Shown here: positions 27,801 to 30,800 of the stretch, in pieces | Numbering within the stretch: the stretch's first letter is position 1 | How the letters are laid out: each line of letters begins with the position of its first letter | Origin: Euglena gracilis | Taxonomy: Eukaryota | Assembly: GCA_039621445.1 (NCBI GenBank) | Contig: CP154954.1 | Location: 36,565,703-36,629,702, forward strand | Direction of reading: 5' to 3' | DNA length: 64,000 bases | Notes under the pieces: generated by a model | The model's database searches: none | The model's input: the letters and a program-made list of their open reading frames with translations, nothing else | What the model was told of the DNA's origin: nothing | Made by a program: the position numbers and the translations under genes

Positions 27801-30800
27801 ATTGAGCACCTGTGGCCAGTGGTTCTAACCAAGCTCCGTGGGAGCGTCTTTGCAGGCAAAGACCAACTGTGGTCAGCTCTGCAGTGCGCTTTTGCTGAGA
27901 TCACCCCTGAACAAGTGCAAACGTTGTATCATAGCATGCCTAATCGCATGAAGGCAGTCATTGCATCGCGTGGAGGACACACCCGTTATTAGCGTGTGCC
28001 AGAGAGGCACAGTGCACCCTCGTCACTGTTCTGTTGCATTGGCATCGCATTGGTAAAGAAAGGTCCGGACATTCTGCTCCTCTGCAATTGCAGGTATTTC
28101 ATCCGGGGGGGGGGGTATTTTTTTTGTGAACTGGGTGGGGGTACTTTTTTAGTGAATTCGACCTGTACAAAGCTGGGGTGCTTTCTTTTTAAAACGGGGT
28201 TAAACTGCGGGAGCACTTGGAGTTCTGACATATCACCTCAGGCTGACAGAAGCACAGGATCCACACCTGCCACCCCGGGCCATGGGCCACCGACCATCAC
28301 CGCCTCCACCTCCCCCTCCAGCACCGCCACCTCCCCCTCCTCCCCGTCGTCCTCCTCCTCCTCGGCCTCGGCCTCCTCCCTCTCCGCCTCGCCGGGGCCG
28401 GGCCTTGCCCGGCCCCCCTGCCGCACCCCCGCGCTGTGCGCCGGCAGGGGCGGCCCGTGGCGGCACGCCGTGAGGTTGGCCAGGCTGGGCCGGCTCCATC
28501 CATCTCTTTAAGCACCCGGGGTCCCAGTCGTGAAAGCCGAGCCCCACAAGTTGCATTTTGTCACATTAACGGAAAGCCCACGCTTGTCAGCTTCACGGAT
28601 GAGAGTTCCGATGGTATGTATGCAGTTGCAATGCAGATCCCATCAAATGGAGGTTCGGTACATCTGACGAAGGCCCTCAGCCACCATTGGGGGGGGTACC
28701 CATTTTGCTGTGTCAGCGGGCTAGGGCTAGAAATTTGCCCTAAGCCTGGGGGGAGGGCTGCAAATGTGCAGCCCTGGCTGTATCTTTGCAGGGCCGGGAT
28801 GGGCAGGGTGTTAAGGGAGCAGGGAGGGGTGGTGGGACGGGACCCCCTTCACCCTGAACAAAAATACTTTCGGCACAAAATGCGGAAAATTTTGGGGGGA
28901 GCTTTTAAAAAAAAAAGCCCAAAAAAGCGAGGATTTGCACGTTTTTAGAAAAAAGCAGCCAAAATGCCAAAAAAAATTATCTTCTCAAGCGAAAAAGGTT
29001 GGAGATTATTATCATTGGTTCTGGGGTCCCTGGGTCTACCCTCCTCCGGGGTGTCTTACCTCCCCCCCCCCCGCACAAAACCAATTCGCTCAATTCGCTT
29101 AATACTGCGGCTGGGTCAAATGGGATAATTACTCAAAAAATGAACAGCAAAACACAGCTTTTGAAAAATAAGAGCATCTGAGCCCCAAAAGACCCCCAAA
29201 AAGTGCCACCCACCCCCCAAAAAACCATTTTTGGCCATTTTTGAACACTTTTTCGAGAAAAAAAAAACTGGTTCTTTGCAACGAAAATTTTCGGTGGACC
29301 CACCAAAGAGGGGCCAGCTGGGTTAGCAACAACCCCCCTCCCCTCCGGGAGCAGCTGGGCTGGGCCGAAATCGGGGCTGGCTGCAGCACCCCCCCCCCCA
29401 CCCCCGGGGGGTCTGCAAACCCCTAAAGTGATGCATGGCCGGCTCCGCACCACGATGACGTCGTCGTCCGGGGGGACCTCCTCTGGCAGTCGCCCGGACG
29501 GCGTGGGCGTCCACTCTGCCGGCCCCGGCGCCCGCTCCCCCGCCGCCCTCCGGGGCCCTGGGGCAGAGACCAGGCGGTTCATTAAGACGGAAGGTCTGGA
29601 CTGCCTTTGTTTGCTCACCACTTGCCCAGGGTCAGTGGAACTGAAGTCACTGGAAAAGCCTGATGGATCTAAACAGTAAACCCCAAAAAAAATACGGTCA
29701 ATGACATGAGTTACAAGGCGGGTGTTGAATCTCACTTGCAAAAAAATAATGCAACATGCTACAGAACAAAAAAGATGAAAAAAAAACAGAAACAGCAACA
29801 GCAAGAGAATCAGAACGACAATGCAAAAAAAACCTCCACGCATGCACACACACACACACACACACACACACACACACATCCATACACAAGCACACACACC
29901 ACTCCCAGCCGTCCCTACCAACGCACTGCTGTCAGCTGCCACCCCCACGCTGCCCTCTGTGTCCCTCTGGTGAGCAGCTCCGCCGCCCTCCGCGTCTATG
30001 GGTGCGTCCTCTGGCCGCCGCCCCAGTTTGGGCGTCCACTCCGCCGGCCCCGGCAGGCGTTCCCCCGCCAGCTGGTGGGGCTCTGGGGCGGGAAAAGCCA
30101 GCGTGGCAACGATGCGAACCGAGAGAAGGGAACTCCCACAGACGCCTGTCAAAATAAATACCTTTGACAGCGTTCAACGTTCCAAGGTTTGTGTGCGAAT
30201 GAAAATACCCCACTCCCAAACCCCATTCCGGAAGCGGCGTTTGAGACGGACCTGTAAAGCTGTGGGGAAGGGACATACAACCCTGCGGGCTTCGGGTTGT
30301 GGCGGGCCCCCAGCACCAAACAGGGGGACTTAACAGTGGCCATTGTCATGGGAAATTTACCTGTTTGATCCTGTCCAGAACCCAAAACCGACCTCGGGGA
30401 GTTTGCATCCCCCTCCCCAGGGTGATGAATGCAGCCCCCCCCCCCCCCCCCGGGAGGTCTGGATCTAGGCGCATTGGGTGCCAGCCCAGGCAGGTGGGAT
30501 ACAGTTGGCGTTGGCAACCCGTTAAAATATAAAATTTATTCAGCCATATAACACATCCAAAATGCAAATATTTTTCAGAGCAAATCTCAGAAAATAGCCC
30601 ACAAAGAGATCCCCCAAAAGCAAACTTCACCAAAATTGGAAAAAAGGAGGAAAAGCTGCAAAAAAGGGCGGCTGGATGGTAATAGATTTCGCTTTCGGGG
30701 GTACAAAGATGGGCCAAAAATGGGCCAAAATGGGTCAAAAAATGGACGAAAATGGGTCGGAAAAAAGCTGTCCAGGACATTTTGGGGGGTAAAAAAAATG

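Follow-up and report, generated by a model that had tools for sequence, protein, structure and literature searches.

A transposon-like insertion in a repeated exon of Euglena gracilis as a candidate nonconventional intron

An origin of euglenid nonconventional introns from MITEs (miniature inverted-repeat transposable elements) was proposed in 2014 (PMC3935182), and a 2024 review describes inverted ends at positions +4 to +6 and -8 to -6 of these introns, together with repeats resembling target-site duplications at their junctions (PMC11282704). Junction repeats are reported for 84.4% of E. agilis introns (PMC12501133), and in E. agilis strain ACOI 323 intron 4 of gapC is strain-specific, spliced and bounded by eight-nucleotide direct repeats, a case interpreted as ongoing gain, possibly by break repair (Milanowski 2016, PMC4770533). 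For the nonconventional introns of tubA, circular forms after excision are reported. The MITE idea rests mainly on the inverted ends and the short junction repeats, and two papers from 2025 describe the origin of nonconventional introns as still unclear or as a plausible assumption (PMC12501133, PMC12621601). Here we describe a locus in a 64,000-nt stretch of Euglena gracilis DNA (assembly GCA_039621445.1, contig CP154954.1, forward-strand positions 36,565,703 to 36,629,702; hereafter the window, with positions counted from its first letter), in which two of five copies of a minus-strand exon, which we call module C, are interrupted at the same nucleotide by an insert with inverted ends and an 8-bp target duplication. 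Overall, we believe, with a probability of about 0.6, that this insert is removed from the pre-mRNA as a euglenid nonconventional intron.

The locus compares closely with what is known of these introns. Like them, the insert lacks GT-AG borders, has inverted ends that can pair, carries CA at +4,+5 and TG at -7,-6, and shows pyrimidine|purine junctions, C as base 3 of the downstream exon and junctional direct repeats, and its host gene contains conventional introns as well as two transcript-supported nonconventional ones. It differs from the knock-in introns of PMC12501133, whose CAG/CTG ends close with a G:C third pair, in having T:A at that pair, and in that its removal is predicted from the DNA. 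As with gapC intron 4 of E. agilis, a filled site can be set against an empty one and read as ongoing gain; in that case, however, the empty sites are alleles of other strains and splicing was seen, whereas here they are paralogous exons, splicing is a prediction, and the gain predates a local duplication. In this light the locus is a further, clean instance of intron gain of an established kind rather than a new kind: the intron-gain idea advanced in the initial annotation of this DNA is not novel, a MITE origin, junction repeats resembling target-site duplications and a strain-specific intron having been published already (PMC3935182, PMC4770533, PMC11282704). What it adds is a duplication of exactly 8 bp, paralogous sites that are empty, and an exon and insert ends that both stayed conserved once the insertion had occurred. 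The overall picture is unchanged, and the case is supporting detail for specialists rather than a surprise.

Module C is 336-342 nt long. Three copies are uninterrupted, namely c52 (52355-52690, minus strand, 336 nt, divergent, and the last exon covered by the transcript-derived protein P0002 described below) and the two empty sites c40 (40634-40975, minus strand, 342 nt) and c34 (34460-34801, minus strand, 342 nt). The other two, also on the minus strand, are split: c28 has an upstream half at 29446-29557, beginning after ...CCCCAG|, and a downstream half at 28267-28496, ending ...GGCAG|GTGTGG, for a total of 342 nt, and c20 has halves at 22214-22322 and 20444-20673, placed by alignment with the other copies, for a total of 339 nt. 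The alignment confirms the initial annotation on this count of three continuous and two interrupted copies. In gene orientation, the similarity begins right after ...CCAG and ends right before GTGTG in all five copies, and these borders are conventional 3' and 5' splice-site contexts, including the C-rich tract found at conventional E. gracilis 3' splice sites (PMC11170887). All five lengths are multiples of three, and the indels relative to the divergent c52 all occur in threes; splice-site-bounded similarity and codon-sized indels make this a coding exon. The halves had also been described as stop-free, and the frame containing VVRSRPS (...DDDVIVVRSRPSLANLTA...) is indeed open in all five copies, but a second frame is likewise open in c28 and c34, as can happen in GC-rich DNA, and open halves by themselves say little. 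Pairwise ratios of nonsynonymous to synonymous divergence (dN/dS) among the copies are 0.10-0.55, and dS between c52 and the others is about 0.53-0.57.

The c28 insert occupies 28497-29437 (minus strand, 941 bp, non-coding), with the gene-orientation 5' end CATGCATCACTTTA and 3' end ...TAAAGAGATGGATG. It lies between two copies of an 8-mer, at 28489-28496 on the gene-downstream side (GCCGGCTC on the plus strand, GAGCCGGC on the minus strand) and at 29438-29445 on the gene-upstream side (GCCGGCTC, 8/8 identical to the first). The c20 insert occupies 20674-22205 (minus strand, 1532 bp), has the same orientation and the same 25-nt and 19-nt termini, and lies between GCCGGCTC at 20666-20673 and TCCGGCTC at 22206-22213. 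The 8-mer is present once in each of the empty sites c34 and c40. The duplication that had been noted at both inserts is therefore perfect in c28 and 7/8 in c20, where the changed base would be intron position +3 in the register predicted below. The 14-bp terminal inverted repeats that had been noted are likewise present and likewise imperfect, as the ends CATCCATCTCTTTA and CATGCATCACTTTA match as an inverted repeat at 12/14 positions, or at 13/16 over 16 nt (end type CATSCATCWCTTTA). An 18-nt pattern of these ends, with up to three mismatches allowed, matches only the two inserts in the window, against 0.03 matches expected by chance. In a strict scan, which required a 12-nt inverted repeat (at least 10/12) with the same 8-mer on either side, the window had six matches, compared with a mean of 0.3 and a maximum of 1 in 30 Markov-shuffled controls; two of the matches, 28815-29354 and 22599-22793, are G-rich and were treated as chance. 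Both the terminal inverted repeats and the target duplication with a single-copy empty site that mark a DNA-transposon insertion are thus found, and the insertion anatomy and the contrast between empty and filled copies are real. Pfam matched none of the nine open reading frames (ORFs) of the inserts (four of them from the c28 insert), and no transposase was found there. The c20 insert also contains telomere-like CCCTAA runs (GGCCTAACCCTAACCCTAAC) at 21620-21680 and 22040-22100, within an internal direct repeat of 126-130 bp that carries a perfect 20-nt hairpin (22129-22172).

Two filled copies need not mean two insertions. Upstream of the exon, 158 nt of intron align between c20 and c28 with 143 matches, 13 mismatches and 4 gap columns, and among the five copies this sequence is common only to these two, as are a block at 23544-23695 and 29846-29997 and two derived exon substitutions relative to c34, c40 and c52; the two copies are also neighbours at the 3' end of the array. 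By these marks c20 and c28 are sister duplicates, and one insertion followed by duplication is therefore the most likely history: of the "two of five" split exons in the initial annotation, two copies are indeed filled, but probably by a single event inherited by both. The inserts themselves are identical at their termini (25/25 and 19/19) and share an internal segment of about 210 bp, 84% identical and in opposite orientation, and the remaining interiors of the c28 and c20 inserts cannot be aligned.

Since the split of c20 and c28, the exon halves have acquired 9 mismatches in 339 nt (2.7%), compared with 13/156 (8.3%) in the upstream intron and 29/207 (14%) in the shared insert segment, so that the exon differs from the pooled non-coding DNA at P = 3.6e-6 (Fisher). 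Exon divergence between the two is dN = 0.016 and dS = 0.057. The insert termini show 0 mismatches in 44 nt, which at non-coding rates has a probability of 0.004-0.02, and the conventional splice sites at both ends of the exon are intact in both copies. At 24 and 82 nt from the point of insertion, the two shared derived sites have not been overwritten from c34 or c40. Bases particular to c28 and c20 include a T 24 nt downstream of the junction (ACRHG instead of ASRHG), and copy-specific bases upstream are GATGACGATG in c20 and GACGACGACG with CCAGAGG in c28. Retention of the insert would place the first in-frame stop at codon 140 in c28 and at codon 52 in c20. Exon halves and insert termini that have diverged far less than the adjacent non-coding DNA suggest that the exon still codes and that the insert ends still function, because selection would not preserve the ends of a dead insert but would do so in an intron that depends on their pairing.

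How might the insert be removed? Within some 60-80 nt around the junctions there are 23 in-frame GT/GC-AG options in c28 and 16 in c20, and none has a net length of zero. The few that use GT would leave 36-63 extra nt and are not the same in c28 and c20, the remaining alternatives are weak GC-AG pairs, and no C-rich tract precedes any AG nearby. The earlier observation that no GT-AG pair sits at the boundaries therefore holds, 0/23 and 0/16 options restoring the exon. The 8-bp duplication permits nine cut registers that give the same mRNA, and only one, GAGCC|GGC, puts the first bases of the element at +4; cut in this way, the intron would be GGC-CAT...ATG-GAGCC, and GGC would open the downstream exon half. 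The predicted intron of c28 would then span 28492-29440 (minus strand, 949 nt, the element plus 8), and the predicted junctions are 29441>28491 in c28 and 22209>20668 in c20. All six features of the junction model that Milanowski 2014 derived from 74 introns (PMC3935182) are found: CA at +4,+5, TG at -7,-6, a pyrimidine before and a purine after each cut, and C as base 3 of the exon downstream. The code derived from knock-ins by Nomura 2025 (PMC12501133), N3-CDG ... CH'G-N5-6|R, is followed in the 3- and 5-nt spacers, the purine and the extended pairing. Predicted minimum-energy folds of the whole 1016-nt and 1607-nt pre-mRNA segments pair the two insert ends with each other in a terminal helix that extends into the palindromic GCCGGC of the duplication, so that in these models the paired ends would bring the splice sites together. 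The duplex energies are -50.4 and -43.5 kcal/mol, compared with -36.4 and -30.1 kcal/mol for shuffles, and 4 of 500 shuffles reach each value.

We therefore favour a history wherein a non-autonomous DNA-transposon-like element with short inverted ends would have entered, on a single occasion, one of the copies of a repeated 342-nt coding exon and left an 8-bp target-site duplication; we infer transposition as the cause. A segment of at least 1.7 kb with the filled exon would then have been duplicated to give c28 and c20, after which the insert interiors would have been rearranged (that of c20 has the 126-130-bp internal duplication and hairpins) and the ends would have stayed identical. In the pre-mRNA, the inverted ends would pair and the cuts would fall 3 nt upstream of the element's 5' end and 5 nt downstream of its 3' end. 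Because 3 + 5 = 8, the element would leave with exactly one copy of the duplication, which restores the ancestral exon. The conservation described above and the resemblance of the ends to a family of elements in the window, described below, support the intron reading; the deviation of CAT/ATG weakens it.

That deviation is one of several observations that weigh against removal of the insert as an intron. The bases at +6 (T) and -8 (A) do not follow the Nomura 2025 code, the third pair of CAT/ATG being T:A where the code has G:C, and in the test intron splicing was lost when any one base tried within CAG or CTG was replaced (PMC12501133). The proposal that cutting at GAGCC|GGC obeys the intron rules and regenerates the exon thus stands for the Milanowski 2014 model and fails at the third pair of the Nomura 2025 code. 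At the same time, the main text of that paper does not describe a compensated change at the third pair, 61.2% of E. agilis nonconventional introns fit the code and 38.8% do not (PMC12501133), and the code is not absolute in the present gene, because intron 6 has CAG...CTT and intron 4 fits neither spacing. Furthermore, when the c34 exon translation was compared by HMMER with 1.84 billion cluster representatives, there were two hits and no protein with a module C of the c20-c40 type, and word-index protein searches with the same translation, for longer proteins and for those near its length, gave no match; of the two hits P0002 alone was relevant, P0003 being an unrelated repeat protein. This absence does not separate filled from empty copies, because the uninterrupted c34 and c40 are missing too, though the 5' part of the gene is represented. 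Finally, the segment common to both inserts has diverged somewhat further than the upstream intron (P = 0.016), and several exon sites conflict with a simple tree of the module C copies, so that gene conversion could contribute to the exon similarity. Several of these points would fit a model wherein the insertion killed the exon, c28 and c20 being skipped or dead, or the repeats past c52 unexpressed, and their intactness reflecting youth or gene conversion: the CAT/ATG ends fail the tested CDG/CH'G code, searches gave no transcript or protein for any c20-c40-type module, P0002 ends inside c52, skipping an exon of 339 or 342 nt preserves the frame, and the conflicting site patterns permit some conversion. 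We consider this unlikely, if well worth keeping in mind, as the halves have diverged 3-5 times less than adjacent non-coding DNA with the insertion already present, the two shared derived sites have not been erased by conversion from c34 or c40, and a dead insert gives no reason for 0/44 terminal mismatches next to a scrambled interior.

Other models accept the filled exons and differ on how they arose. Insertion of related family members on two separate occasions, each into an identical 8-bp site of a paralogue and under a strong target preference, would account for inserts of 941 and 1532 bp that have only their termini and the segment of about 210 bp in common, with that segment in opposite orientation and at 14% mismatches compared with 8.3% in the flanking intron. 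Such a coincidence seems improbable to us when both the insertion point and the orientation are identical, when c20 and c28 alone share the flanking intron and lie adjacent in the array, and when c34 and c40 have an identical 8-mer yet are empty. A single event could also have been the capture of filler DNA while a staggered double-strand break was being repaired, an origin put forward for the gapC intron of E. agilis, rather than transposition. Milanowski 2016 offers this for eight-nucleotide direct repeats (PMC4770533), the exact end sequence occurs in the window in two copies only, both at the homologous site, and the Pfam search of the nine insert ORFs found no transposase; filler DNA is nonetheless a slightly poorer bet still, since the ends are inverted repeats and resemble elements with perfect 8-bp duplications (46318-46619, 32-448 and 31223-31588). 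Least of all do we expect an ancestral intron lost precisely from c34, c40 and c52. The exon-limited similarity among copies hints at a homogenising process able to erase an intron, but several precise losses would be needed, including one from the divergent c52 (dS about 0.53-0.57), and 8 bp that stand single in the empty copies are doubled in the filled ones, the hallmark of an insertion.

The window also contains relatives of the insert ends. At 46318-46619 lies an intact MITE-like element of 286 bp (46326-46611), its 8-bp duplication (GTACCAAC) and its 16-nt inverted ends (CAGGCTTCTTTTTAAG) both perfect. The strict scan further identified small elements at 32-448 and 31223-31588, with perfect 8-bp duplications and ends that start CAGG, and a relaxed scan for duplications and inverted ends added one at 16095-16273 with a 7/8 duplication, the only match kept out of 46, which are mostly noise (19-36 in controls). 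All four small elements are non-coding, 163-401 bp long, with CAGG...CCTG inverted ends, and their internal similarity is confined to matches of G/C runs. Closest to the insert ends, and also to those of intron 6, are the ends of the 46-kb element, which match the insert ends at 12/16 and 11/16 positions, a level of 11/16 being reached by 0.23-0.27% of the 4812 window 16-mers that start with CA. That element probably lies in non-coding DNA, because each of the three minus-strand frames meets a stop no more than 90 nt from the element's flanks; many flanking frames are open around 32-448 and 16095-16273, in GC-rich DNA. The ends of the 46-kb element also match those of the transcript-supported nonconventional intron 6 of the host gene at 12/16 and 13/16. 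Intron 6 (52820-53004, minus strand, 185 nt), placed at the protein level, where eight registers are possible, reads GAC|CAGGCTTCT...AGAAGCCTT-CCCTG|G, and decayed 8-nt repeats (CCCCGGAC/CCCTGGAT, 6/8) directly abut its CAG...CTT ends with the correct spacers. The ends of the insert resemble this CAGGCTTCT-type family with 8-bp duplications in the window, and the comparison links a mobile-looking family to a real nonconventional intron and, more distantly, to the insert. In the other transcript-supported nonconventional intron, intron 4 (53391-53497, minus strand, 107 nt), the ends pair (CAGGGGAG / CTCCCCTA), but none of the registers that fit the protein combines a 3-nt with a 5-nt spacer, and an 8-nt junction repeat is not detectable.

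In this context, a more general model can be put forward, tentatively and with rather more doubt than confidence: the nonconventional introns of Euglena may be insertions of one MITE-like class with 8-bp duplications and CAG...CTG-type ends, the 3/5-nt spacing being the duplication split 5|3. If the conserved triplets are the element's own ends, the 3-nt and 5-nt spacers add up to the 8-bp duplication, and removal of a nonconventional intron at the RNA level would exactly undo the insertion. The window would then hold all stages, from the intact copy at 46318-46619, through intron 6 with its decayed repeat, to the younger insertion in the exon, whose ends would have changed compensatorily from CAG/CTG to CAT/ATG and still splice. 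The same window offers intact relatives with 8-bp duplications and one transcript-supported intron with similar ends, and the locus is a natural experiment on whether the splicing code accepts a compensated CAT/ATG pair in place of CAG/CTG. Our literature search found no paper linking Euglena nonconventional introns to a named transposon family, nor did it find the 3 + 5 = 8 arithmetic of the spacers stated.

Elements of the hAT type have 8-bp duplications and CAG-type ends. Like MITE-like DNA transposons, the insert has short imperfect inverted ends, an 8-bp duplication, no coding capacity and relatives in the window with perfect 8-bp duplications and CAGG... ends; its exact ends occur in only two window copies, both at one homologous site. 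A maize Ds element is said by Giroux et al. 1994 to have been spliced out as a de novo intron. The two cases are alike as DNA-transposon-like insertions in an exon, tolerated through removal from the RNA (here a prediction). They differ in that removal in maize uses spliceosomal sites and is reportedly imprecise, whereas the 3 + 5 register predicts exact restoration of the exon for the present insert. The introners of Micromonas, dinoflagellates and other groups (PMC11282704) are similar in that an inserted element creates the intron and the target duplication contributes to a junction; unlike them, with their spliceosomal GT-AG-type removal, the present insert neither carries nor creates usable GT-AG sites, and it fits the separate euglenid pathway.

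P0002 bears the source label Euglena gracilis, EG_transcript_15627. It aligns in eight exons, with 246/247 residues identical, to 52551-56033 (minus strand), the 5' part of the host gene, and this makes the window nuclear DNA of E. gracilis or of a near-identical source. Introns 1, 2, 3, 5 and 7 of the seven are in a GT-AG register, and introns 4 and 6 are nonconventional, without GT/GC-AG in any protein-compatible register, all of them being placed at the protein and not the nucleotide level. The 5' part of the gene is thus transcribed and contains nonconventional introns, which bears out the earlier assumption of a euglenid origin and provides a host with the nonconventional splicing pathway. 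The exons for the N-terminus of P0002 are single copy within the window, so the downstream copies of module C are not whole-gene duplicates; that they lie on the same transcript as the 5' part is plausible. The match to P0002 stops at 52551, in the middle of c52 and just before a stretch nearly identical in all module C copies, and its end looks like an assembly break at the repeat. Pfam has no family for P0002 or for module C, and Rfam and tRNA scans of the window gave no matches. Nineteen contig sets guessed to be RNA, none of them recorded as such, contain 6-20% of sampled window words, and four raw RNA runs bear the same species label.

The array has some further features. The copies c20, c28, c34 and c40 are 95-99% similar, and the similarity, as between 34449-34805 and 40623-40979, halts about 4-11 nt from the splice sites, their introns being unalignable between copies except for the upstream intron of c20 and c28. 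A dS of only 0.05-0.10 next to unalignable introns suggests exon-limited homogenisation or very fast intron turnover among the copies; a tblastx self-comparison aimed at other modules gave noise and no usable result. In the intron just downstream of c28, a Tc1/mariner-type element at 26566-28169 is flanked by TA on both sides, with inverted ends of about 87 bp that are 93% identical and start CAGGTCGAATTCACT, and a broken ORF in its interior that matches DDE_3 weakly, under the Pfam cut-off (E 1.3e-4). Between c52 and c40, a long gap contains an ORF fragment (47885-48361, minus strand) with a weak match to the reverse-transcriptase family RVT_1 (E 1.1e-5, likewise under the cut-off), probably a retrotransposon remnant. 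Lastly, (CA)n microsatellites on the plus strand at 29845-29899 and 19790-19876, which read GT(GT)n on the gene strand, directly follow exon-like blocks and appear to have grown out of the GTGTG-type 5' splice sites typical of the host gene.

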